From: Clostridia bacterium
Lineage (GTDB): Bacteria; Bacillota; Clostridia; Christensenellales; CAG-138
Direction: 5' to 3'
DNA: 64,000 nt
Assembly: GCA_017448545.1 (NCBI GenBank)
Contig: JAFSLH010000025.1
Location: 1,262 to 65,261, forward strand
Part shown: in pieces, positions 11,549 through 27,282 of the stretch
Numbering within the stretch: position 1 is the first letter of the stretch
How the letters are laid out: every line of letters starts with the position of its first letter
The notes under the pieces: generated by a model
The model's database searches: none
The model's input: only the letters and a program-made list of their open reading frames with translations
Told to the model about the DNA's origin: nothing
Position numbers and translations under genes: made by a program

Positions 11549-12562
11549 ATGATCGGAGAATACCTGTTTCATATCGGCTCGTTCGGCGTTCCGTCGATGG
11601 GCTTCTGCATTCTGGTCGGAACGATCCTCGCGATGTTCCTCTGCTACTACGCAAAGCGGTTCAGCAGCCTCGACTGGAACGACGAAATCCTGGACGGCGT
11701 GATCTGGGCCGTCATCGGCGGCTTCATCGGCATGAAGGTTCTGTACTGGATCGTCACGCCCGACGAATTCCTCGCCGTGTTCCGCGATTTTTCCTGGAAG
11801 CGGCTGCTCAGCCTGATCACCAGCGGCATGGTCTTTTACGGCGGACTCGTCGGCGGCGTCGCGGGCTTGTTGCTGCTCTGCCGCAAGAGGAAGCGCAATT
11901 TCTTCACGTTTGCGGACCTGATCCTGCCGTGCTTCTGCGTCGCGCACGCGGGGGGCCGGATCGGCTGTTTGCTCGTCGGCTGCTGCTACGGCGTGGCGGA
12001 GGGACAAAGCTGCTTCGGCGGGCTCTGCACCTATCACGGCGCGCTTGCCGTCCGGTATCTGAACGGCACGATGCGGCTGCCCGTGCCGCTGCTCGAGGCG
12101 ATCTTCCTGCTGCTGCTCGCGGGGCTGCTGCTGTTCCTTCTGAAGATCAACAAGCACCGCGGCACGGTCACCGGCTGGTACCTCGTCCTGTACGCGATCT
12201 GGCGGTTCTTCATTGAATATTTCCGCGGCGACGAAGTGCGCGGCATCTACGGCGTGTTCTCGACCTCGCAGTGGATCAGCATCGCGATCCTGGCCGCCGG
12301 CGTCGTGATTCTTGTGCTCTCGCGCAAGTGGCCGAAGGACGAACCGATCCGTGAGTTTGCGGAGGACGATCTCGTCGTGCCGCCGGAAGAGCCCGAACCG
12401 ATGCCGGAGCAGGAAATGCCCGAAGAACCGGACGAAGTCGCCGAGACGGAAGACGTCGCCGCCGTGGAGGAAGTCGCGGAAACGGCCGATGCAGGCGAAG
12501 AAATCGCTGCTCCCGACGCAGCGCCTGCGTCGGACGACGGAGCCGGGGACAGCGCAGAATGA
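11549..12562 (+). CDS. lgt: Prolipoprotein diacylglyceryl transferase with acidic C-terminal tail
   Basis: GMVFYGG, GRIGCLLVGCCYG, RFFIEYFR, STSQWIS motifs; AAAGGAG RBS. Confidence 0.9.
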   Translation: MIGEYLFHIGSFGVPSMGFCILVGTILAMFLCYYAKRFSSLDWNDEILDGVIWAVIGGFIGMKVLYWIVTPDEFLAVFRDFSWKRLLSLITSGMVFYGGLVGGVAGLLLLCRKRKRNFFTFADLILPCFCVAHAGGRIGCLLVGCCYGVAEGQSCFGGLCTYHGALAVRYLNGTMRLPVPLLEAIFLLLLAGLLLFLLKINKHRGTVTGWYLVLYAIWRFFIEYFRGDEVRGIYGVFSTSQWISIAILAAGVVILVLSRKWPKDEPIREFAEDDLVVPPEEPEPMPEQEMPEEPDEVAETEDVAAVEEVAETADAGEEIAAPDAAPASDDGAGDSAE

Positions 12563-16901: not shown

Positions 16902-18350
16902 TTACCAGGGGCGGCGGGCGTTGACGAAGTTGCGCTTCCAGTAGTTGGACAGGGAACGCTTGACCACCTTGCCGTTGCCGGACGAGGCGTCGATCATCAT
17001 ACCGCCGCCGATATAGATGCCGGTATGGCTGACGCTCTTGGAATCGTCGCTGCGGAAGAACAGGATATCGCCGCGCTGCAGATCGCTGATCGACTTGATT
17101 TCCTTCCAGTCCGACTTTTTCGAGTAGCCGGACGCGCTGAGCCGCGTGACCGAAACGCCCGCCTGCCGCAGGCAGTAATAGACGAAGCCGGAGCAGTCGA
17201 AGCTGTTTGGGCCGCGGTCGCCGAGGACGTATTCGCAGCCGATCTTCGACGTGGCGGCGGAAATGAATTTATCGATCCGCTTCTCCTTCGAGGACTGCTC
17301 CTGCGCTTTCTTTTCGGCTTCCTTCGCCTTCTGCTCCTCCGCCTTCTGCTTGGCGGCTTCCTCCTTGGCCTTGCGCTCGGCTTCTTCCGCTTCGGCCTTC
17401 TGCTTCGCTTCGAGCGATTCGGAAATCTTCGCGTCGTCGCTGTACAGCTTGTCGAGCGTCTTCTCCCCCGCCTTGCCGTCCGCCGTCAGCTTGTTCCGCT
17501 TCTGGAACGCCATGACGGCTTCGGTCGTGATCGCGCCGTAGACGCTGTCCACCTGACTGCTCGAGAGGTAGCCGAGGTCGACGAGCTGCTCCTGCAGCAT
17601 CTTGACGTCGCGGCCCTCCGCGCCCTCTTTCAGCGTGTACTTCTGCGCGTCGCCGCTGTAGAGGAGTTCGAGCGTCTGCGTTCCCGCAACGCCGTCCATT
17701 TCCAGTCCGTGCTGTCGCTGGAACAGCTTGACCGCGTATTCGGTCGCGCTGCCGTAATAGTTCGTCGGCTCGTCGATTTCGAGGTAGCCGAGTTTGATCA
17801 GCCGCTTTTGCAGCGTCAGGACTTCGTCCCGCTCGTCGTGCTTTTTCAGCACCAGCGGTTCGGCGGTCGGTTCCGCCGCAATCACGACGGTTTGCTGTTC
17901 CGCTGCCGCAGCGTTCCCCTCAGCGACCGCTTCCGCCTGTGCTTCGGGTTCGGACAGCGCTTCGGGCAGCGCCGGTTCGGCTTCGATCCACGCTGATTCG
18001 GCTTCGGACAGCGCTTCGTCCGGTTCGGGCATCGCGCGCTCGATCGGTTCGGCGGCCTCGTCGCTTTCCGTGACAGCCGCGCGCACGGCGTTCCCCCTGC
18101 GGCAGGCCGACACGCCGACGGACAGCGCGATGATAAACAGCAGCAGCGCAAACACGAAGACGACCGACGCAGCGATCATGCGCTGCCGGTCGAGACTCTG
18201 CGCGCGAAACCGCTTCCAAAGCCGGCCGGCCCATGCGCCGATCGCCTTTGCAGCGGTCACAACGATATGCTGAACGGTTTGCCAAACCGTGCCGAGGACG
18301 GCGCCCGCGGACGATCCGGCGGTTCGATTGTTCGATCTGTTTCCTTCCAT
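16902..18350 (-). CDS. NlpC/P60 peptidoglycan endopeptidase with two PG-binding domains and TM anchor
   Basis: LQKRLIKLGY/FQRQHGL..DG.AG..T repeats; FDCSGFV, HTGIY, DASS. Confidence 0.9.
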   Translation of the reverse strand: MEGNRSNNRTAGSSAGAVLGTVWQTVQHIVVTAAKAIGAWAGRLWKRFRAQSLDRQRMIAASVVFVFALLLFIIALSVGVSACRRGNAVRAAVTESDEAAEPIERAMPEPDEALSEAESAWIEAEPALPEALSEPEAQAEAVAEGNAAAAEQQTVVIAAEPTAEPLVLKKHDERDEVLTLQKRLIKLGYLEIDEPTNYYGSATEYAVKLFQRQHGLEMDGVAGTQTLELLYSGDAQKYTLKEGAEGRDVKMLQEQLVDLGYLSSSQVDSVYGAITTEAVMAFQKRNKLTADGKAGEKTLDKLYSDDAKISESLEAKQKAEAEEAERKAKEEAAKQKAEEQKAKEAEKKAQEQSSKEKRIDKFISAATSKIGCEYVLGDRGPNSFDCSGFVYYCLRQAGVSVTRLSASGYSKKSDWKEIKSISDLQRGDILFFRSDDSKSVSHTGIYIGGGMMIDASSGNGKVVKRSLSNYWKRNFVNARRPW

Positions 18351-18514
18351 GCCCCCAGTTTACGACCGACTTCGCGTGCGTGCAAGCGGCTGCGGCATCT
18401 GTTAACGCAAAATTCAAGGTTCGGACGCATTTTGTCCGCAATTTCGAAAATAATGCAACCATTTTGGCGAATCTGTGGTATTCTGTATAGGAAAACAGGA
18501 AAGGGGAAACGCCC

Positions 18515-18871
18515 ATGAAACAGCAAAAAATGACCGATTACAAGCCGAGCTACCCGAAACGGTTCTTTCAGGGTGCGGCGATCACCGCGGCGACGGTGCT
18601 TGCGCTCTCTCCGATGACCGGCTGCAAGCCGCTCAGTGAGCTGACGACCTCCGGCGCGGTCGCGATCGATCAGCCGACGGACGATCCCGGCGAATTGGTG
18701 CTGGACGGCGAAGTCATGATTGACGAGCCGACCGACGAAGGAACGCTGCCGGATGAAACCGAAGCGTGCCCGGATGACGTGCTTGTGACCGACGGCGAAG
18801 TCGCGGTGGACGAACCAGACGACATGGTGCGGACGGACGGCATTGTGGCCCTGCCCGAAGACGGCGAATAA
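18515..18871 (+). CDS. Acidic repeat-containing putative lipoprotein; candidate radical SAM substrate
   Basis: GGAAAGGGG RBS; N-terminal YKPSYPK, hydrophobic stretch ending MTGC, four [TL][SD]GxV repeats; 17 bp upstream of rSAM gene. Confidence 0.7.
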   Translation: MKQQKMTDYKPSYPKRFFQGAAITAATVLALSPMTGCKPLSELTTSGAVAIDQPTDDPGELVLDGEVMIDEPTDEGTLPDETEACPDDVLVTDGEVAVDEPDDMVRTDGIVALPEDGE

Positions 18872-18888
18872 TCCGAACGGAGGGCGCT

Positions 18889-19971
18889 ATGAACCTGACG
18901 CTGCACCTGACCGCGGACTGCAATCTGCGCTGCCGGTACTGCTATGAAACGCATCGGCGCGTCCGGATGTCCGAAGAAACGGCGAAACAGGCGGTCGATC
19001 TTGCGTTTGCCGCAGGGCATCCGAAAAACGGCTTCTCGCTGTTCGGCGGGGAGCCGCTGCTCGAGCGCGGACTGATCGAGTCCGTGTGCCGGTATGCCTC
19101 GGACCGCGCCGCGCGGGAGGGCAAGGCCGTCCGGTTCAAGATGACGACGAACGGGGCGCTGCTGGACGAGGATTTTTTGCGCTTTGCAACGGCGCACGGA
19201 ATCGAGATCGCGCTCTCGCACGACGGGCTGCTGCAGGACGTGCAGCGCCTGACGCGGGACGGCAGCCCGACGCGGGAAACGCTGGAGCCGGTCGTGGATC
19301 TGCTGCTGGCGTATCAGCCGAACGCGGTCGCGATGCAGACCGTGATGGCCGAAAACGTCGGCCGAATGGCGGACTCGGTAGAATGGCTGTATCGGCGCGG
19401 GTTTTCGCGCGTCAACACGGCGATCGACTACCGGCCGGACGCCGGCTGGGACGACGGTTCGATGGCCGTGCTGCGCGCGCAGTACGAGCAGGTCGCGGCG
19501 CTTTGCGAAAGGCAGTTCGACACGGAACGGCCCCTCCGGTACCTGAATTTTTGGTCCAAGATCGCCGCGTACCTGAACAACCGGCCGTGCCTCGAATGCA
19601 AGCTCGGCGTTCGCCAGCCCTCGGTCGCGCCGGACGGAACGATCTACCCGTGCAACCAGTTTCTGAACCTGCCGGACTACCGGATGGGCGACGTGACGAG
19701 CGGGATCGACAAAGCGCGGCAATGGGCGATCGTGCAAAAATCGCTTGCGCCGGAACCGGACTGCCTTGGGTGCGCGATCGCGGACCGCTGCCGCCACCAT
19801 TGCGCGTGCCTGAACTTCAGCCTGACCGGCGACATGCATACGGTTGCGCCGGTGCAGTGCGAGCATGAACGCATCCTGATCCCGATCGCGGACGCGCTCG
19901 CCGGGCGGCTCTATGCCCGCGGAAGCGTCCGGTTTTTGCAGCAGTATACGGGGGATGAACTCGCGCAGTGA
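18889..19971 (+). CDS. Radical SAM enzyme with SPASM domain
   Basis: CNLRCRYC, FGGEPLL, TTNG, LSHDG; SPASM cysteines CLEC..YPC..CLGC.....C...CAC..C. Confidence 0.92.
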   Translation: MNLTLHLTADCNLRCRYCYETHRRVRMSEETAKQAVDLAFAAGHPKNGFSLFGGEPLLERGLIESVCRYASDRAAREGKAVRFKMTTNGALLDEDFLRFATAHGIEIALSHDGLLQDVQRLTRDGSPTRETLEPVVDLLLAYQPNAVAMQTVMAENVGRMADSVEWLYRRGFSRVNTAIDYRPDAGWDDGSMAVLRAQYEQVAALCERQFDTERPLRYLNFWSKIAAYLNNRPCLECKLGVRQPSVAPDGTIYPCNQFLNLPDYRMGDVTSGIDKARQWAIVQKSLAPEPDCLGCAIADRCRHHCACLNFSLTGDMHTVAPVQCEHERILIPIADALAGRLYARGSVRFLQQYTGDELAQ

Positions 19972-20008
19972 ATGCGGGGAAAGGTGCCTTTGCATTCTTC
20001 CCCGCACG

Positions 20009-20147
20009 TCCGACCTTACAATCCTCCCGGCTCGACAAAGTCTCGCCAAACCGCCTGCAGCGTGCTGACAGCGGTCAATAAAGATTCTGCTTTTTCTCCC
20101 ACAGGGAGCGCAGAATCTTTATCTCGTTACACAAGGAGGGCTGTTTT
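20009..20147. repeat. Family B REP element interrupted by family C hairpin
   Basis: TCCGACCTTACAATCCTCCCG, then CCGCCTGCAGCGTGCTGACAGCGG..GCAGAATCTTT as at 8826-8894, then TTACACAAGGAGGGC. Confidence 0.8.
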
Positions 20148-20245
20148 GTTTTCAAAGTGCCTTTTGCGGCAGGCCCTTTTGTTTTACTTGCGTTTTGGGG
20201 GCGGAGCGCGTATAATGGGTACATCGCACAGAATATGGAGGCAAT

Positions 20246-21616
20246 ATGGAACGAATCAACGTATGGACCACCTACTCCGAGGAGCAGGAACAGCAGGTGT
20301 TTGCGCTCGGCGCAAAATACCGCGCGTATCTGGACGCAGGCAAGACCGAACGGGAAGCCGCTGCAGAGACGATCCGCCGCGCCGAAGCCGCCGGTTACCG
20401 GAACCTGAACGACGTGAAGACGCTGCAGCCCGGCGACCGCGTGTACGTCAACACGATGAACAAGGCCGTGCAGCTGTACATCATCGGCAAAGCCCCGATC
20501 GAACAGGGCGTCAACATCATCGGCGCGCACATCGACAATCCGCGGCTGGACGTGAAGCAGAACCCGCTGTATGAGGATTCCGATTTCGCGTACCTCGATA
20601 CGCACTACTACGGCGGCATTAAGAAATACCAGTGGGTGACGATCCCGCTCGCGCTGCACGGCGTCGTCGTGAAGAAGGACGGCACGACCGTTCCGGTCGT
20701 GATCGGCGAGGACGAGGACGATCCGGTCGTCGGCATTTCCGATATTCTGGTCCACCTTTCCGCTTCACAGCTCGACAAAAAAGGCGCCGTCGTCGTTGAG
20801 GGCGAGGATTTGGACGTGATCGTCGGCGGCAAGCCGCTCGCGGGCGAGGAGAAAGAGCCGTTCAAGGCGACGGTGCTTTCGATCCTGCAGGAGAAGTACG
20901 GCATCGAGGAGGAGGATTTTATCTCCGCCGAACTCGAAGTCGTTCCCGCGGGCAAGAGCCGCGATTTCGGTCTCGACCGCAGCATGATTCTCGGCTACGG
21001 CCACGACGACCGCGTTTGCGCGTTTGCGCAGATCGAAGCGATGTTCAGCGTGACCGAAACGCCGGACGTGACCTGCTGCTGCGTGCTGGTCGACAAGGAA
21101 GAGATCGGCAGCGTCGGCGCGACGGGGATGCGGGCCCGGTATTTTGAGAACGCGATGGCGGAAATCCTCAATAAGTGCGGCGCATACAGCGACCTGACCC
21201 TGCGCCGCGCGCTGCAGAACAGCCGGATGCTCTCCTGCGACGTCAGCGCGGGCTACGATCCGCTCTACGCCGCGAACTTTGAGCGCAAGAACGCTGCCTT
21301 CGTCGGCCGCGGCGTGTGCTTCAACAAGTTCACCGGTTCGCGCGGCAAGTCCGGCAGCAACGACGCGAACGCCGAATACCTTGCCAAGCTGCGCAAGATC
21401 ATGGACGACAACGACGTGCATTTCCAGACCGCGGAGCTCGGCAAAGTCGACGTCGGCGGCGGCGGAACGATCGCCTACATCTGCGCGCTGTACGGCATGG
21501 AGGTCGTGGACAGCGGCGTTGCCGTGCTCTCGATGCACGCGCCGTGGGAGATCATCGACAAGGGCGACCTGTACGAAGCGAAAAAGGCGTACCGCGCCTT
21601 CCTGCTGAACGCATAA
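20246..21616 (+). CDS. M18 family aminopeptidase
   Basis: KTERE, GAHIDNPRLD, HYYGGIKKYQW, GHDDR, DKEEIGS, SMHAP. Confidence 0.93.
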   Translation: MERINVWTTYSEEQEQQVFALGAKYRAYLDAGKTEREAAAETIRRAEAAGYRNLNDVKTLQPGDRVYVNTMNKAVQLYIIGKAPIEQGVNIIGAHIDNPRLDVKQNPLYEDSDFAYLDTHYYGGIKKYQWVTIPLALHGVVVKKDGTTVPVVIGEDEDDPVVGISDILVHLSASQLDKKGAVVVEGEDLDVIVGGKPLAGEEKEPFKATVLSILQEKYGIEEEDFISAELEVVPAGKSRDFGLDRSMILGYGHDDRVCAFAQIEAMFSVTETPDVTCCCVLVDKEEIGSVGATGMRARYFENAMAEILNKCGAYSDLTLRRALQNSRMLSCDVSAGYDPLYAANFERKNAAFVGRGVCFNKFTGSRGKSGSNDANAEYLAKLRKIMDDNDVHFQTAELGKVDVGGGGTIAYICALYGMEVVDSGVAVLSMHAPWEIIDKGDLYEAKKAYRAFLLNA

Positions 21617-22181: not shown

Positions 22182-22305
22182 TCAAAAAAAAAATTCAAAA
22201 TTAAGCGGGAGTTGCTTCCCGCTTAATGTTTATTTAAGGAAGACAGGGTATACTGAACGTATCAAAAGGGCAAACGGCAAGCGCCGCGCCCGGAAGGAGA
22301 CTAAT

Positions 22306-24444
22306 ATGAAACAGATTCTCGCACTTTTCCTCGTCGGCATGCTTCTGCTGACCGGCTGCGGCACGGCGGCCGCAGGATCGACCGGCAGCAATGCGGCGAC
22401 CGCGACACAGGCGACGGCAACCGAAACCGCGACCGCCGCGGATACCACGCCGGTGACCGAGCAGCCGACCGCTGCAACGACCGACGACGCGGCGACGCTT
22501 TCCGATCCGGCCGACGCCGCGAAGGAAGCGACCGGCGCATTCTCGATCGTCACCGAGGACGGCGCGTTCTCCGAGAAGGGTTCCGTCTATACGATCACGA
22601 AGGGCGGCGAATACACGGTTTCCGGCGTGCTTGAAGACGGCCAGATCGTCGTGAACGTCGCAAGCGACGAAGAAGTGAAGCTGATCCTGAACAACGCTTC
22701 GATTTCGTGCAGCACCGACGCGCCGATCGTCGCAGTCAGCGGCGCGGAACTGACCGTCAAGTCCGAGACGGACACGTACAACACCGTGACCGACCTCCGC
22801 ACCGGCGCATCGGACGACGCCGAATACGACGCGGCGATCTATGCGGCCTGCGACCTGAAGCTTTCCGGCAAGGGCACGCTGATCATCACGACCGCGTTTG
22901 ACAACGGCGTCAAGTCGAAGGACGACCTGACCGTGAAGAACGTCACGCTGAAAGTCACCTCGACCGGCGTTGCGCTGAAGGGCAACGATTCCGTGACGAT
23001 TGAGTCCGGCAGTCTGATCCTGACCTCGACGGCTTCGGACGCCATCAAGACCGAGAACAGCGACGTGTCCTCGAAGGGCAAGCAGCGCGGCACGATCGCG
23101 ATCCTCGGCGGCCAGGTCGACATCTATGCGGCCTGCGACGGTCTCTCGGCGGCGTACAACGTGGAAATCTCCGAAGAAAGCGACTGCGTCGTGAACGTCT
23201 ACACCGCCTCCTACGCGTCCGGCCCGGTTGCGACGCTGAGCGAGCAGTACCTGATCGTGCCGATCTCGCTGTACAGCAACAGCAGCGACTACTATGCGTA
23301 CTTCTACAACGACGACGACACCGCGGGCGTCTGGGTGCAGTGCGTCTATGAATCAATGGTTTACAGCGGCGGCCGCGCGAGCTACTACGCGCTGCTGTTC
23401 CGGGTTCCGAGCGGGTACGAAAACATCCTGTTCCACGCGGTTGCTTCCGGCACGACGCCGGACGGCTCGAACTTTACGGCGGCATCGACCGGCGACACGA
23501 TCAACCGCGCGATGACCGGCTATCTGATCAAAGGCGTTTCGGACACCGTCATTTCCGGCGACTGGGTGCAGATTTCGAGCAGCGGCGACGGCAAAACCAC
23601 CTACTCCTCCAAGGGCATCAAGGCGTCGAACGAGATCCTGATCTCGGGCGGCGCGGTGACCGTCTATGCGGCGGACGACGGTATGCACGCAAACGGCGAC
23701 ATTGCACTGGACAGCGGTTCCGTCGGAACGGGCAACATCCGCATTTCGGGCGGCTCGGTCACGGTCACGTCGGCGGACGACGGCATCCACGCGGACGGCG
23801 CGCTGACGATCGACGGCGGCACCGTCAACGTTGCGGAGGCGCATGAAGGCATGGAAGCAAACGTGATCACGCTCAACGCCGGCACGGTCTTTGTCTACGG
23901 CAAGGACGACGGCATCAACGGCTGCGCCGGCAGCGCGACGCCGCTCGTGCAGATCAACGGCGGCTACCTGCAGGTGCAAACGCCCTCGGGCGACACGGAC
24001 GCGATCGACGTCAACGGCAGCTTCGTCATGACCGGCGGCACGGTGCTCGTACTCGCCGGATCGCAGATGGGCGGCGTTGCCGGTTCGGTCGACGTCGACG
24101 GCACGATCAGCGTCACGGGCGGCACGATCATCGCGTTCGGCGGCATCTGTGTGATTCCCTCGTCCGGTTCCGTCAACGTCTACACCGCGAACGGCACGAC
24201 GTTCCAGGCCGGCAGCTACGCGCTGCTCGACAGCGACGGCGGCACGATCTTCTCGTTCACGCTTGACAGCGCGTATACCTCCTGCTGGATCGCTTCCGAA
24301 TCGTTCGTTCTGAACGGCTCGTACCGGCTCGAAAAGGACGGCGCGTCCGTGCTGAACTGGACGCAGTCTTCCGCGAGCGAGGGCAACTACAGCAACAGCG
24401 GCTCCGGCGGCCGCGGCGGTTTCGGCGGCAGCGGCGGATGGTAA
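22306..24444 (+). CDS. Cthe_2159 (DUF4353)-family beta-helix carbohydrate-binding lipoprotein with inserted domain
   Basis: Lipobox LTGC, Thr/Ala linker, TITKGGEYTVSG, repeated DDG.HA / I.GG.V beta-helix turns, DAIDVNG. Confidence 0.85.
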   Translation: MKQILALFLVGMLLLTGCGTAAAGSTGSNAATATQATATETATAADTTPVTEQPTAATTDDAATLSDPADAAKEATGAFSIVTEDGAFSEKGSVYTITKGGEYTVSGVLEDGQIVVNVASDEEVKLILNNASISCSTDAPIVAVSGAELTVKSETDTYNTVTDLRTGASDDAEYDAAIYAACDLKLSGKGTLIITTAFDNGVKSKDDLTVKNVTLKVTSTGVALKGNDSVTIESGSLILTSTASDAIKTENSDVSSKGKQRGTIAILGGQVDIYAACDGLSAAYNVEISEESDCVVNVYTASYASGPVATLSEQYLIVPISLYSNSSDYYAYFYNDDDTAGVWVQCVYESMVYSGGRASYYALLFRVPSGYENILFHAVASGTTPDGSNFTAASTGDTINRAMTGYLIKGVSDTVISGDWVQISSSGDGKTTYSSKGIKASNEILISGGAVTVYAADDGMHANGDIALDSGSVGTGNIRISGGSVTVTSADDGIHADGALTIDGGTVNVAEAHEGMEANVITLNAGTVFVYGKDDGINGCAGSATPLVQINGGYLQVQTPSGDTDAIDVNGSFVMTGGTVLVLAGSQMGGVAGSVDVDGTISVTGGTIIAFGGICVIPSSGSVNVYTANGTTFQAGSYALLDSDGGTIFSFTLDSAYTSCWIASESFVLNGSYRLEKDGASVLNWTQSSASEGNYSNSGSGGRGGFGGSGGW

Positions 24445-24801: not shown

Positions 24802-27282
24802 ATGCGGGCAATTCGTTTGACAATCTGGGTACTTTGCTTTGTCCTTCTGGCGACGGTTCCCGTTTCTGCCGGCGCGGCGGAAACCGGATCGCTGCCGGCG
24901 GGCGTTTTGGCGGTTATCGCGGAGGGCCCCTCCGCCGTGCAGCCCTCGCTCCCCTTCCTTTCGGACGGGCGCACCGATACGACGCTGACCCTGAACACGC
25001 GCGAAGAACTCGTTCTTTCGCGTGCGGAAGGCGAGACGCGCCCGATCGACTCCCTGTATTTCGATTTTTACGAGCAGCCCGGTTCGTTCGTGCTGACGTT
25101 CTGTGACGCGGACGGGAACAAGATCGCGTCGCAGCAGTTCAACAACGCGGAGCTTTTGCTGCGCGTTCCGACGGAGGAGCTGCAGCCTGCGTCGATCGTG
25201 CTCACCGTAATCAGCGGCCCCGTCCGCATCACCGAAGCGTACCTTTGCGACGCGTCTTTTTCCGCGCCGTTTTCCGATGCGAGCGAGACGGCGGACGTTT
25301 TCATCCTGCTCGGTTCGCCCGGCGACGAAGTGTTCAAGCTCGGCGGTCTGCCGCTGCTGCTCGCGGGTGAACACGGGCTTTCCGTGCGCGTCGCGTATCT
25401 GTTCGGCGCGGACGGGTACAAGACGCATCAGTGCATGGAAGCGCTGCGCGCGCTCGGGGTCCGGCAGGAACCGGTCTTTTTCAACGCGACCGCAACCGAC
25501 GCGACAAACGATACGGCCGTCTGGGGCCGGTTCGGGTCCGAAACGTCGCTGCTCAACAAACTGACTTCCCTGATTCGCACGACGCAGCCCCGCCTTCTGA
25601 TCGTGCCGGACGCTGCGAAGAATACCGATCCGTATTCGGACGGCGTGATCGGACGCGCGGCGCTCAAAAGCGCCGCGATGGCCGCGGACGAGCAGCGGAA
25701 CGTGCAGAAACTGCCCGCGCATACGGTCGACAAGGTGTATTCGCTGACCGCTGCCGGAACCGAGGGCGCGACCGTCGTTACGCTTGACCGGGCGCTGTTT
25801 GCCTTTGACGGCGCGAACGGCGCGGCCATGGCGCAGTCGATCGCCGAACTCTACCGCGAAGAACGGCTTTACCGCCGCACCGTGCCGCAAACGCTTTCGT
25901 TCGTGCTGCAGTCCTCCGCCGTCGGTGAGGACGCGGCGAAGGATGCGCTTTGGGAAAACCTCGATCTGACGCAATTTTCGGGCTGGTGCGAACCGACCGC
26001 GACGCCCGCGCCGACCGCGACGCCGGGCCCGACGGACACGCCTTCCCCCGTGCCTGCCGAAACGCCCGCGCCGACCGAGGCCGCGACAGCCGCGCCGGCC
26101 GCGCAGCCGACCGCCGTACCGGAAGAACCGGACGAGCCGGCGGAAAGCCGGCTTTGGCTGCGGCTTTTGCCGGGCGCTGTTGCGGTTGCGCTGTTTGTGC
26201 TGTTCCTTCTGCTGAAAAAGAAGCCGAAATGGCTGCCGGTGCTGTCGGCGGTTCTGCTGCTCCTCTGCGCCGTTCTGCTGCTGCGGCAGGTTCGCTGCGC
26301 GACCCCGCAAACTGTGGAAGCGACGGTCCTCCCGACCGCCGTACCGACCGCCGCACCGACGGCAACGCCTTCTGCCGCGCCGACCGTAACGCCGACGGCG
26401 GCCCCGACCGAAACGCCCGCGCCGACCGCGACGCCGGAGCCGACGCCCGATCCGCTCGCCGCGTACTTTACGGAGGACGGCTCGGAGGAGATCGTTTCGG
26501 ACTTTACGGAGGGGCATTGGTCGTACAAAAATGACGCGCTTTCGATCGACATCGTGCGCGTCAACACGCAATACGAAAAAAACGGCGGGCCGCTCGTGTA
26601 CTATGTGGCGGACATCCGGATGCGCGACTATTCGAGCTTCCACACCAACGTCCGGAGCTTTACGCAGCCGTGGAGATACGCGCGGCTGGAACACGCGGTC
26701 TTTGCGCTGACCGGCGACAACCTGACTTCCTCCGAAGCGGAGCTGAAGGGCTGCCTGATCCGAAACGGAAAATACTATTCCGATCGCGGCGCGCAGGCGA
26801 CGCTGGTGCTGAACGACGATCTGACGCTCGAGATTCTGCATCCCGGCACGTTCACGGCGCGGCAGCTGCTGGATCGCGGCGTGCGCAATACGTTCAGCTT
26901 CGGCCCGGTGCTGCTCGAAAACGGCGAAGTGTCGCCGGAGGTCTACACGCACCGCGTGACGCACCCGAACCCGCGCTGCGGCGTCGGCATGATCGAAGCC
27001 GGGCATTGGATCGCGATCGCGACGGACGGACGCAGCAGCAGCTATTCGATGAGCATTTCGCTCGAATACTTTGCCGGACTGTTCCAATCCTACGGCTGCA
27101 CGCTGGCGTACAACCTCGACGGCGGCGCGTCGACCGGCATGGTGTTCATGGGCGAAGCGCTGAACCTGCACACGCCGGACAACAACGATCCGCAGCGGCC
27201 CTGGGTCGACTGCTTCCTGCTCGGCTACAGCGACAAGGTTCCCTCGGTCAGCGATCCGGTGTATCATAAGGGAGAGCGGTAA
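24802..27282 (+). CDS. Membrane-anchored fusion: degenerate PIG-L-like domain plus phosphodiester glycosidase (NAGPA) domain
   Basis: Signal peptide; LGSPGDE (HPDDE-like); PT linker, two TM helices, PT linker; FSFGPVLLENG, NPRCGVG, DGR, AYNLDGGAS. Confidence 0.75.
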   Translation: MRAIRLTIWVLCFVLLATVPVSAGAAETGSLPAGVLAVIAEGPSAVQPSLPFLSDGRTDTTLTLNTREELVLSRAEGETRPIDSLYFDFYEQPGSFVLTFCDADGNKIASQQFNNAELLLRVPTEELQPASIVLTVISGPVRITEAYLCDASFSAPFSDASETADVFILLGSPGDEVFKLGGLPLLLAGEHGLSVRVAYLFGADGYKTHQCMEALRALGVRQEPVFFNATATDATNDTAVWGRFGSETSLLNKLTSLIRTTQPRLLIVPDAAKNTDPYSDGVIGRAALKSAAMAADEQRNVQKLPAHTVDKVYSLTAAGTEGATVVTLDRALFAFDGANGAAMAQSIAELYREERLYRRTVPQTLSFVLQSSAVGEDAAKDALWENLDLTQFSGWCEPTATPAPTATPGPTDTPSPVPAETPAPTEAATAAPAAQPTAVPEEPDEPAESRLWLRLLPGAVAVALFVLFLLLKKKPKWLPVLSAVLLLLCAVLLLRQVRCATPQTVEATVLPTAVPTAAPTATPSAAPTVTPTAAPTETPAPTATPEPTPDPLAAYFTEDGSEEIVSDFTEGHWSYKNDALSIDIVRVNTQYEKNGGPLVYYVADIRMRDYSSFHTNVRSFTQPWRYARLEHAVFALTGDNLTSSEAELKGCLIRNGKYYSDRGAQATLVLNDDLTLEILHPGTFTARQLLDRGVRNTFSFGPVLLENGEVSPEVYTHRVTHPNPRCGVGMIEAGHWIAIATDGRSSSYSMSISLEYFAGLFQSYGCTLAYNLDGGASTGMVFMGEALNLHTPDNNDPQRPWVDCFLLGYSDKVPSVSDPVYHKGER

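Follow-up and report, generated by a model that had tools for sequence, protein, structure and literature searches.

A conserved pair of a radical SAM/SPASM enzyme without an RRE and an adjoining predicted exported protein in a Clostridia bacterium

Radical SAM (rSAM)/SPASM maturases are a main source of new peptide chemistry. To our knowledge, nearly all of those characterised have an RRE, act on cores that are aromatic or rich in Cys, and come with proteases and exporters of their own. A SPASM enzyme is paired with a lipoprotein in Bacteroides (TIGR04133 rSAM_w_lipo and TIGR04134 lipo_with_rSAM), a system that is, as far as we know, uncharacterised. In the case of QhpD and QhpC, the passages on them in PMC7876137 describe a protein modified by an rSAM enzyme in the cytoplasm and exported afterwards. 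The lipoprotein passages of PMC8939145 concern graspetide loci.

The pair analysed here lies in a 64,000-nucleotide stretch of contig JAFSLH010000025.1 from a Clostridia bacterium, which as a whole is referred to as the window. No published description of the pair was found by titles and abstracts in open-licensed PMC and bioRxiv, although the survey supplements of PMC10288494 and PMC9062424 may list the cluster.

The partner gene and its enzyme

A sequence-only reading had described a 118-aa ORF that combines an N-terminal YKPSYPK, a hydrophobic stretch closed by MTGC and four repeats, and, 17 nt downstream of it, a 360-aa rSAM enzyme with the full set of SPASM cysteines and no N-terminal RRE. 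All of these elements were recovered (Table 1). The partner matched no family among the Pfam and NCBIfam models, and its 25 homologues (39-57% identity) were all unnamed. Partners are of a short type, as in the window, or of a long type; ESM Atlas clusters for both carried 'hypothetical protein' annotations only. No longer homologue turned up when the short partner was used as query, which is weak evidence. A purine-rich, Shine-Dalgarno-like stretch precedes both the partner and the rSAM start.

Table 1. Features of the partner-rSAM pair and their positions in the window
Feature	Position	Strand	Remarks
Partner ORF, 118 aa	18515..18871	+	Short-type exported acidic repeat protein, presumed substrate of the adjoining rSAM
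n-region, residues 1-16, MKQQKMTDYKPSYPKR	18515..18562	+	Y-x-P-x-Y-P-K-[KR] motif; candidate docking leader
h-region ending in lipobox-like MTGC (Cys37)	18563..18625	+	From sequence; Cys37 invariant, Gly36 at least 90% conserved (44 short partners)
Mature part, 81 aa, 32% D/E	18626..18868	+	Four Gly-centred units, consensus ELVLDGEVAIDEPT
Intergenic spacer, 17 nt	18872..18888	+	GGAGG 5' of the rSAM start
RRE-less radical SAM/SPASM enzyme, 360 aa	18889..19971	+	PF04055 and TIGR04085 above cut-offs

YKPSYPK occupies residues 9-15 of the partner, within an n-region that holds five K/R and is followed by an h-region of about 19 residues and the box M-T-G-C, with Pro at -4. The Y, P, Y and P of this motif were each kept in 56-57 of 57 short partners, and K2, Y9, P11, P14 and K16 were at least 90% conserved among 44 short partners. 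In the partner's own genome (60% complete), a regex scan recovered the motif from no other protein. A lipoprotein was defined by a positively charged n-region and an h-region, with the lipobox [LVI][ASTVI][GAS]C located no further than about residue 40; at the lipobox positions, the relatives had LAGC, LTAC or TTGC. Strict lipobox patterns exclude Pro at -4. The genome encodes LspA and two copies of Lgt, and from this and the sequence the window partner may be a lipoprotein, with an atypical lipobox.

The mature part contains 26 D/E, 2 K/R and no aromatic residues. Its repeat units span partner residues 42-55, 60-73, 90-101 and 104-116, and across 44 short partners their central glycines (G47, G65, G94 and G109) showed a conservation of at least 90%. 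Four G-x-[VI]-x-[VIL] units were counted, compared to a mean of 0.23 after shuffling of the mature part, and none of 5000 shuffles reached four; similarly, the best 10-mer self-score was 40 versus 22.3 +/- 3.6 in shuffles, of which 1 in 1000 reached 40. The repeats had been said to lack Cys, which holds for the units, but the stretch separating repeats 2 and 3 contains C85, which is not conserved. Together with C37 it makes up the two cysteines of this protein, whereas most short partners have a single one. The ESM Atlas model had a pLDDT of 0.35. As its only cargo, the window partner carries four Gly-centred units in an acidic, disordered stretch.

The downstream enzyme scored 62.4 bits with the radical SAM model PF04055 (cut-off 29.5), and the cysteines of its CX3CX2C cluster (C11, C15 and C18) were invariant in 31 of 31 homologues. 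A SPASM domain was assigned from the seven-Cys motif CX9-15GX4C ... CX2CX5CX3C ... C together with a score above cut-off. The motif corresponds to C237-X12-G250-X4-C255, C292/C295/C301/C305 and C324, and TIGR04085 gave 41 bits (cut-off 27), whereas Pfam PF13186 alone gave 15.9 bits, below its threshold of 21.5. An extra eighth cysteine, C307, and GGE at 53-55 were, like the other seven SPASM cysteines, invariant in the 31 homologues. There is no RRE: the first cluster Cys comes 10 residues after the protein start, and residues 3-330 align to residues 99-441 of CteB.

When the enzyme was compared with the curated NCBIfam/TIGRFAM family models, as the sequence-only reading had suggested, it fell below every family cut-off. 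The best five NCBIfam models were PapB (192 bits), Nif11-type (148), QhpD (130), SCIFF (129) and CXXX-repeat (119), and even PapB was far from its cut-off of 340. These scores support the view that the window rSAM belongs to no characterised family.

The expected absence of a protease or transporter from the unit held in so far as the pair alone is conserved, but 275 nt further downstream, the same strand carries the gene of an M18 aminopeptidase. This enzyme was rejected as a leader protease because it is not syntenic in relatives: the window neighbours NlpC/P60, M18 aminopeptidase, flavin reductase and TrpR-like flank the pair in none of 22 other same-genus loci. The flanks differed again in five mapped long-type loci, which had only the partner-rSAM module in common. 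No sulfatase was present among the eight neighbours scanned, in agreement with the earlier claim. An Rfam search of 17900-20400 (E <= 1) returned no match, and a promoter and terminator scan of the + strand gave nothing above shuffles. As a separate observation, 14 same-genus loci share one upstream ORF, in a scan otherwise confounded by the spurious antisense ORFs that arise from the high GC content.

Conservation of the pair and the wider family

Among 28 genomes of the same genus, the two genes were adjacent in 23, both were absent from four, and the locus was cut by a contig end in one. The partner was present in 24 of the 28, and the four genomes that lack it (G001, G003, G023 and G024) are the same four that lack the rSAM. 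Every partner match in the genus lay on the rSAM contig, just upstream of the rSAM, with no unlinked copy, and in the sole partner-only case (G423) the locus runs into a contig end. Orthologues of the rSAM with 63-78% identity were found in 20 of 24 same-genus genomes and G000, and also in G422 and G424. More distant homologues (31-45% identity) were spread over three further families of the order, in 15 of 401 genomes searched, and all 14 analysable loci had an abutting upstream partner. Where the rSAM frame could be read (34 loci), the gap between the genes was -4 to +25 nt in all but one, which is cut by a contig start. The ORF script left out two loci with an in-frame stop in the rSAM (L015 and L033), and L003 was dropped because it is cut at a contig start.

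The pairing was also followed in the reverse direction, with loci fetched by long-partner alignment alone. Of 78 such loci, five of them on the same contigs as earlier loci, 71 had a same-strand rSAM that scored 393-541 bits on the window-rSAM profile. These loci span at least 10 phyla, and strains of Hungatella and Clostridium that are in culture are among them. Contig ends account for five of the seven misses, whereas in the remaining two (L065 and L123) the partner had at least 2 kb downstream, yet without an rSAM. One to five tandem partner genes were found per enzyme, and the leader was kept in each copy. Chance adjacency was rejected, as co-occurrence is near-perfect and the genes abut. 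The pairing foreseen in the sequence-only reading is thus supported as a true functional pair, and as it is conserved in a large multi-phylum family, the enzyme probably modifies the partner before export.

The majority of the other partners carry a globular domain of about 190 aa with HGxGRGxFGC and no repeats. The Cys of this motif was kept in 128 of 135 long partners, and the region upstream of the domain was variable in the 135 sequences; 15 long-type sequences examined for repeat-like units had zero to two weak matches each. In those long partners that are nearest the window's order, the globular domain comes after a phi-x-G-[DE] element. By a rough regex, the lipobox-like Cys was missing from 27 of 99 rSAM-adjacent long partners (counting only profile matches above 80 bits for the partner and 300 bits for the rSAM) and from 55 of 150 representatives; such proteins would be exported by another route or held by a membrane anchor. 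The claim of an iteratively modified repeat core therefore finds no support in the family as a whole, as its larger sister subfamily has a globular domain instead.

The N-terminal motif, in contrast, was common to both subfamilies. A related Y-x-x-P-x-[YF]-P-x-[KR] was found in 141 of 150 long-partner representatives, so that the shared form is Y-x(1,2)-P-x-[YF]-P-x-[KR] followed by a signal or anchor segment. The short partners of a further group, f4, keep it only in part (M-K-I-E-P-R-K-I-K-K, without Y-P). A recognition leader would be expected to resemble such a PxYP-type motif; this much of the leader proposed earlier stood, whereas the docking itself is conjectural.

The long-partner profile matched 1850 representative clusters, and a search with the window rSAM gave 484 matches at E <= 1e-20, possibly with other rSAM types among them. 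The enzyme family was monophyletic with respect to SCIFF/QhpD-like outgroups (support 100, stem 1.53). An origin of the short type within the long type was rejected, since the rooted tree gave a trichotomy of g1-short, f4-short and long, with a long-branch warning. The enzymes form a distinct clade that is related to the thioether formers SCIFF, QhpD and PapB and scores below all curated models, and each member examined adjoins one to five genes for exported proteins with the N-terminal motif in the n-region. The window rSAM is an RRE-less SPASM enzyme within this clade and abuts an upstream partner with the motif and a hydrophobic segment. The window pair is a small variant of a much larger family that is unnamed in Pfam and NCBIfam.

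Proposed maturation and rival explanations

We consider it probable (roughly 0.6) that the pair is a self-contained module, in which an exported-protein maturase would dock on a leader within the signal peptide, with the target residue and the chemistry left unspecified. Partner and enzyme would be co-translated, as the 17-nt gap suggests, and the enzyme would dock in the cytoplasm on the N-terminal motif. Hydrogen-atom abstraction at a residue of the unexported partner would follow, by means of the CX3CX2C cluster and SAM, with two auxiliary clusters predicted to be held by the eight invariant cysteines. The product would be exported by Sec and lipidated at Cys37, and the leader cut off by LspA, which would account for the lack of a dedicated protease or transporter in the unit. 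Several observations sit uneasily with this docking model: the f4 short partners keep the motif in part only, the window lipobox has Pro at -4, many long partners lack a lipobox-like Cys, and two loci have a partner without an rSAM. Furthermore, the nearest characterised enzymes all need Cys-rich substrates, whereas the one conserved Cys of the partner is taken by the lipobox.

A wider formulation, on which we are tentative at best, would make this a widespread unnamed class of RRE-less rSAM/SPASM enzymes that read a leader in the signal-peptide n-region and, in the window subfamily, place a Cys-independent, possibly new modification on the repeats of a surface-anchored acidic lipoprotein. With the leader in the n-region of a Sec/lipoprotein signal, general secretion and signal peptidase would replace the protease and transporter of RiPP systems.

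The site of modification can be read in several ways. The four Gly-centred repeats may be the core, each modified iteratively by Cys-independent chemistry, for instance epimerisation or a side-chain C-C bond at the invariant +2 Val/Ile, or functionalisation of the flanking Asp/Glu. We hold this to be possible but doubtful. The units are far above chance, and short partners carry two to six of them with a nearly invariant Gly and V/I at +2 and +4; the phi-x-G-[DE] element of the long partners nearest the window's order is similar, and TvgB and TigE act on Val/Ile in repeated motifs (passages on them in PMC10878394). However, most long-type partners lack the unit and yet have the same enzyme family, the cyclopropyl-synthase signature GYW was found in none of 31 family members, and the match to TigE (8VPO) was just 28.8 bits. 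In addition, D-G between short alternating hydrophobic stretches resembles a beta-hairpin turn, so the invariance of Gly may be explicable without modification, and the unit E-L-V-L-D-G-E-V-A-I would fit a strand-turn-strand structural unit equally well. A thioether from the sulfur of Cys37 to a downstream Asp/Glu carbon, with Cys37 unlipidated and the hydrophobic segment as a membrane anchor, seems unlikely. The best five NCBIfam models are by description Cys-peptide maturases, three of them named thioether or ranthipeptide formers; CteB is the nearest solved structure; and PapB and QhpD join Cys to Asp C-beta or Glu C-gamma (passages in PMC9413430 and PMC7876137). Cys37 was invariant in 44 of 44 short partners, but the lipobox context accounts for this by itself. 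Most long partners offer a second Cys in HGxGRGxFGC, whereas the single conserved Cys of the short ones means that a thioether reaction could not be iterative. CX3D is also missing (at +4, C37 has Ser and C85 has Val), all family scores are far below their cut-offs, and bona fide SCIFF maturases reach 295-299 bits on the PapB model, compared to 192 for the window enzyme.

It is improbable that the N-terminal motif is itself the modification site (e.g. a Tyr/Pro/Lys cross-link), the product being a cytoplasmic tail or a released modified signal peptide. Pheromones derived from signal peptides exist in enterococci, and Y-P-K matches the aromatic-X-X cyclophane pattern. The motif is also the only element common to g1 short and long partners and the sole part to stay in the cytoplasm, the compartment in which Fe-S enzymes act. 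Nevertheless, the aromatic position is Leu/Ile in 9 of 141 long partners, Y-P is missing from the f4 partners, the cyclophane-former scores are low (YhhB 47, AmcB 51 and FxsB 42 bits), and cores at the N-terminus, with the follower behind them, are rare. That the partner is an accessory or membrane tether of an enzyme whose substrate lies elsewhere is just as hard to credit: in other systems, a role as PqqD-like helpers has been suggested for small proteins whose genes immediately precede that of a SPASM enzyme (in passages of PMC8939145), but this partner has an export signal, occurs in one to five precursor-like tandem genes per enzyme, and joins diverse cargo to a conserved N-terminus in the usual leader-and-core logic, with no other conserved candidate substrate nearby.

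Under the preferred reading of a maturase that docks on the signal peptide, the family appears to couple radical chemistry with ordinary Sec/lipoprotein export. A leader within the signal peptide, if real, would give a new rule for finding orphan rSAM substrates and would suggest that gut anaerobes carry a class of modified proteins on their cell surface. As the short variant has no globular domain and one conserved Cys, it would be the simplest substrate for locating the modified residue.

Comparison with known systems

Membership of the anSME, PapB, SCIFF, QhpD, cyclopropyl synthase and TIGR04133/TIGR04134 families was rejected on scores and features. The compact RRE-less rSAM/SPASM enzyme anSME, about 370 aa in length, acts on an exported protein ahead of export; the window enzyme is similar in build and would be so in action, but it scored 72.2 bits with TIGR03942 (cut-off 349) and 31.9 bits with PDB 4K37, with no sulfatase present and no C/S-x-P-x-R motif in the partner. 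With TvgB and TigE, rSAM-SPASM enzymes that act repeatedly on Val/Ile of short tandem motifs according to the passages in PMC10878394, it would share the repeated substrate; these enzymes have an RRE and GYW with its Tyr ligating Aux I, both of which are absent from the window family. TIGR04133 (cut-off 425) did not match the window pair, its matches in the genome being two other loci with 24.5 and 11.2 bits, and TIGR04134 (cut-off 39.8) matched nothing in the genome. CrpC, which forms archaeal thioether cross-links, acts on a protein-sized neighbour, CrpA, instead of a short peptide; going by the description in PMC13692751, the two are set apart from the window pair by the RRE of CrpC and the Cys-rich CrpA.

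The nearest solved structure was the SCIFF maturase CteB (PDB 5WGG; 119 bits), to which rSAM core and SPASM domain align throughout. CteB has an N-terminal RRE of ~98 residues that the window enzyme lacks, and the SCIFF substrate is a six-Cys peptide, whereas the window neighbour is not Cys-rich. The score with TIGR03974 was 128.8 bits against a cut-off of 425, and the invariant C307 of the window family lies outside the seven-Cys motif. PapB, which makes the ranthipeptide freyrasin from PapA, gave the best curated model (NF047865), with the core matched at positions 5-328 of 330, but with 192.4 bits against a cut-off of 340. This model covers the core only, and ordinary SCIFF maturases score 295-299 bits on it; the long-type relative reached 232 bits and the f4 relative 149 bits, and in 401 Bacillota genomes the model had no match at cut-off. 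The Cys-X3-Asp (or Glu) motif of the PapB substrate is absent from the window partner.

QhpD, in turn, is set apart by a TIGR03906 score of 129.7 bits against a cut-off of 453 and by NlpC/P60 and M18 peptidase neighbours in place of a qhp operon. Its substrate QhpC is Cys-rich and has a protease of its own, QhpE, for cleavage and an ABC transporter for export, whereas the window partner has one conserved Cys and a Sec/lipoprotein signal in a unit without a protease or transporter gene. What the two systems would share is the order of events, with an rSAM/SPASM enzyme acting in the cytoplasm on a protein with an N-terminal leader, which is then exported, as passages of PMC7876137 describe for QhpC.

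The partner gene and its surroundings

The sequence-only reading had described a small exported-type protein (the partner), its motifs and, 17 nt further on, a SPASM-type radical SAM enzyme (rSAM) free of an RRE, and this description was confirmed as written. Shine-Dalgarno-like purine-rich stretches precede both starts. The signal-peptide and lipobox assignments were made by eye and regex.

Features of the window around the partner–rSAM pair
Feature	Position	Strand	Details
Lgt (PF01790, 149.9 bits)	~11561-12316 (G000:C4:12822-13577 in the window's own genome)	+	~6 kb upstream of partner
NlpC/P60 peptidoglycan hydrolase	16902-18350	-	482 aa; divergent neighbour; two PG_binding_1 domains, long Ala/Glu/Lys-rich linker
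Partner ORF	18515-18871	+	118 aa
Partner n-region			16 residues, basic; holds Y-K-P-S-Y-P-K-R
Partner hydrophobic stretch			~19 residues, after n-region
Partner lipobox-like box			M-T-G-C, Cys37
Partner tail			81 residues; 26 D/E, 2 K/R, aromatic residues 0
rSAM ORF	18889-19971	+	360 aa; 17 nt after partner ORF
M18 aminopeptidase	20246-21616	+	275 nt downstream of rSAM
Large exported protein	22303-24444	+	three Cthe_2159 carbohydrate-binding stretches, lipobox LLTGC, Gly-rich C-terminal tail
Large exported protein	24802-27282	+	NAGPA (phosphodiester glycosidase) domain, Pro/Thr-rich linkers, internal hydrophobic segment

The pair is surrounded in the window by NlpC/P60, M18 peptidase, flavin reductase and TrpR-like genes. 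At 22 further loci from the genus, none of these genes lies beside the pair; the NlpC/P60 gene was without synteny with the pair in relatives. Therefore, the unit consists of the partner(s) and the enzyme alone, and the M18 aminopeptidase, absent from those flanks, is probably unrelated to it. For the earlier claim of a unit devoid of a protease, the nearby M18 gene is a caveat. In 14 same-genus loci (L002-L021), the module lies downstream of one conserved 344-aa ORF; as it occupies another position in the window's genome, either the module was relocated or a rearrangement took place in the region.

A 459-aa antisense frame (18670-20049, minus strand) over both genes was rejected as a gene. 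It is Arg/Pro-rich, a composition typical of the spurious antisense frames that high-GC DNA produces; one neighbourhood comparison was confounded by frames of this sort.

Co-occurrence and the wider family

Orthologues of the rSAM (63-78% identity) were detected in 20 of the 24 other same-genus genomes first sampled and in two of a further three. With a partner profile, 24 of 28 same-genus genomes were positive, and those lacking the partner (G001, G003, G023 and G024) were exactly those lacking the rSAM. All partner matches in the genus were located just upstream of the enzyme gene on the same contig, and none elsewhere, with a spacing of -4 to +25 nt in 33 measurable loci. The sole partner-only genome (G423, 62% complete) carries the gene at the end of a 6310-base contig. 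Most same-genus genomes have two tandem partner genes, and the window, from a genome that is 60% complete, has one. Partner and rSAM are a genuine gene pair. Two rSAM homologues (G004:C27:12321-13394 and G234:C15:31594-32631) are each interrupted by a single in-frame stop codon (TGA and TAA, respectively) and may be pseudogenes or assembly errors.

When 401 genomes of the order were searched, full-length homologues (31-45% identity) were found in 15 genomes outside the genus, from three families, with an abutting upstream partner in all 14 analysable loci; the co-occurrence of such enzymes with such partners, proposed earlier as a check, is seen in the genus and beyond. Short partners of 104-119 aa, which carry a lipobox as well as L-[IS]-L-[DS]-G-D-I-A units, occur in one low-GC genus (group f4). 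Partners of the remaining two families are 260-298 aa long and comprise the N-terminal motif, an extra P-x-R-W, a hydrophobic segment in which L-A-G-C or L-T-A-C is often present, a linker that varies and a domain of ~190 aa. This long form matched no Pfam or NCBIfam model, and its profile recovered 1850 representative clusters at E <= 0.001 (734 at <= 1e-30).

In a reverse test, 78 loci were fetched from the long-partner alignment alone, five of them on contigs already seen. They span Bacillota (including Hungatella hathewayi DSM 13479, H. effluvii, Ca. Formimonas warabiya and Clostridium spp.) and nine other phyla or candidate phyla, with taxon names as in the sequence records. A same-strand family rSAM (393-541 bits on A1, the rSAM profile) was present in 71, in most cases immediately downstream of 1-5 tandem partner genes; the remaining seven were five contig ends and two true misses (L065, L123). 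In long-type loci of group f31 (L040/L042/L044), the rSAM is followed by a LysM-like ORF of ~210-226 aa, which may be a clade-specific third component, and then by an aminotransferase-like ORF (by eye).

In a tree of 94 family members built by a quick method with no mixture model, with seven PapB-model ORFs as outgroup, the family was monophyletic (support 100, stem 1.53 substitutions per site) and the long-type enzymes formed one clade (support 99). The long clade, the window-like short lineage and the f4 lineage were left without branching order and with a long-branch warning, so that either type of cargo may be the ancestral one. This large family is represented in the window by its small variant.

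The enzyme

The rSAM matched PF04055 (62.4 bits) and the SPASM model TIGR04085 (41 bits, cut-off 27), and its CX3CX2C motif begins ten residues from the protein start. Residues 3-330 align with CteB residues 99-441; therefore, the enzyme lacks an equivalent of the CteB RRE. The residues C11, C15, C18 and GGE 53-55 are kept in 31 homologues together with eight further Cys, which correspond to the seven-Cys SPASM pattern plus C307.

Among curated models, PapB (NCBIfam NF047865) ranked top with 192.4 bits (cut-off 340), followed by Nif11-type (148), QhpD (130), SCIFF (129), CXXX (119) and anSME (72). The enzyme reached the cut-off of none of them, and the Bacteroides 'rSAM/lipoprotein system' models did not match the pair. 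The PapB model has 330 positions, covering the rSAM+SPASM core only. In 401 Bacillota genomes it found no true member; 321 of these genomes gave matches below its cut-off, the matches listed scoring 270-316 bits. Of seven ORFs matched in this way, six were bona fide SCIFF maturases, and these, at 295-299 bits, outscore the window rSAM by a wide margin. Because the model spans the core only and scores SCIFF maturases this high, a best hit to PapB for an RRE-less enzyme is partly a length artefact, and the 'PapB-like' label suggested by these scores should not be over-read. The GYW signature, a feature of cyclopropyl synthases according to PMC10878394, was present in 0 of 31 family members.

Candidate target, export and precedents

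The partner tail contains four G-x-[VI]-x-[VIL] units, against a mean of 0.23 in shuffles and with at least four in 0 of 5000; its best internal 10-mer score was 40, compared to 22.3 ± 3.6 in shuffles. The repeats noted earlier are thus real, but their role as the core was weakened, since the sister subfamily lacks them. The unit, with consensus E-L-V-L-D-G-E-V-A-I-D-E-P-T, occurs in 2-6 copies per window-like short partner, in 1-3 copies in four f4 partners and in 0-2 weak copies in each of 15 long partners; a related φ-x-G-[DE] element ahead of the domain was seen only in long partners nearest the window's order. Moreover, D-G flanked by two alternating hydrophobic half-units resembles a hairpin turn. 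Modification of the repeats, at V/I or D/E beside Gly, is nevertheless the leading, if tentative, option (probability about 0.28).

Use of the single Cys as thioether donor is rather improbable. Each of 44 short partners keeps the lipobox Cys, and a rough regex failed to find a lipobox-like Cys in 27 of 99 rSAM-adjacent long partners and 55 of 150 representatives. The N-terminal motif is itself an unlikely target, ranked lower still. It reads M-K-Q-x-K-φ-x-x-Y-x-P-x-Y-P-K-K in short partners (Y, P, Y and P in 56-57 of 57) and φ-K-P-φ-[KR]-x-Y-x-x-P-x-[YF]-P-x-[KR] in long ones (anchor fitting 141 of 150 representatives), with only its first half kept in f4; the motif, and not the repeats, is common to both partner forms. 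Equally unlikely is that the partner is no substrate at all. Its ESM Atlas model is disordered (pLDDT 0.35), which fits a peptide-like substrate and proves nothing. At its start, the long domain carries a strongly conserved [AV]-P-φ-F-x-H-G-x-G-R-G-x-[FY]-G-C-x-x-V-x-P-P-x-F (P, F, H and first G in 135/135, Cys in 128/135), and the motifs of the domain include HGxGRGxFGC...PPxFLSE, LDGxD, FE[FY]VS..D...W, YDP and a C-terminal Q..DF..WL...G (L050-L127, P0147-P0296).

In the most likely mechanism, the Fe-S enzyme, whose cluster-binding residues are conserved, would act in the cytoplasm before export, docking on the N-terminal motif in place of the missing RRE–leader pair. The partner, which has an export-type hydrophobic segment, would then be exported and its leader removed by signal peptidase, which would explain why the unit has no protease or transporter gene. 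The genome encodes LspA and two copies of Lgt, the second on contig C16.

Neither partner form nor the enzyme clade has a model in Pfam or NCBIfam, and the pair was not found in openly licensed full-text literature, although supplementary tables of rSAM surveys may list the cluster. Systems in which an rSAM/SPASM maturase is encoded beside its substrate are of a known kind; unusual in this family is the absent RRE, as would be a leader inside the signal peptide, export by the general pathway and, in the window's subfamily, a substrate without a Cys-rich, aromatic or YG core. The chemistry is possibly new. Functionally, the closest precedents are anSME, which acts on sulfatases, and QhpD/QhpC. 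In the latter, as PMC7876137 describes, a leader-bearing protein is cross-linked in the cytoplasm ahead of export.
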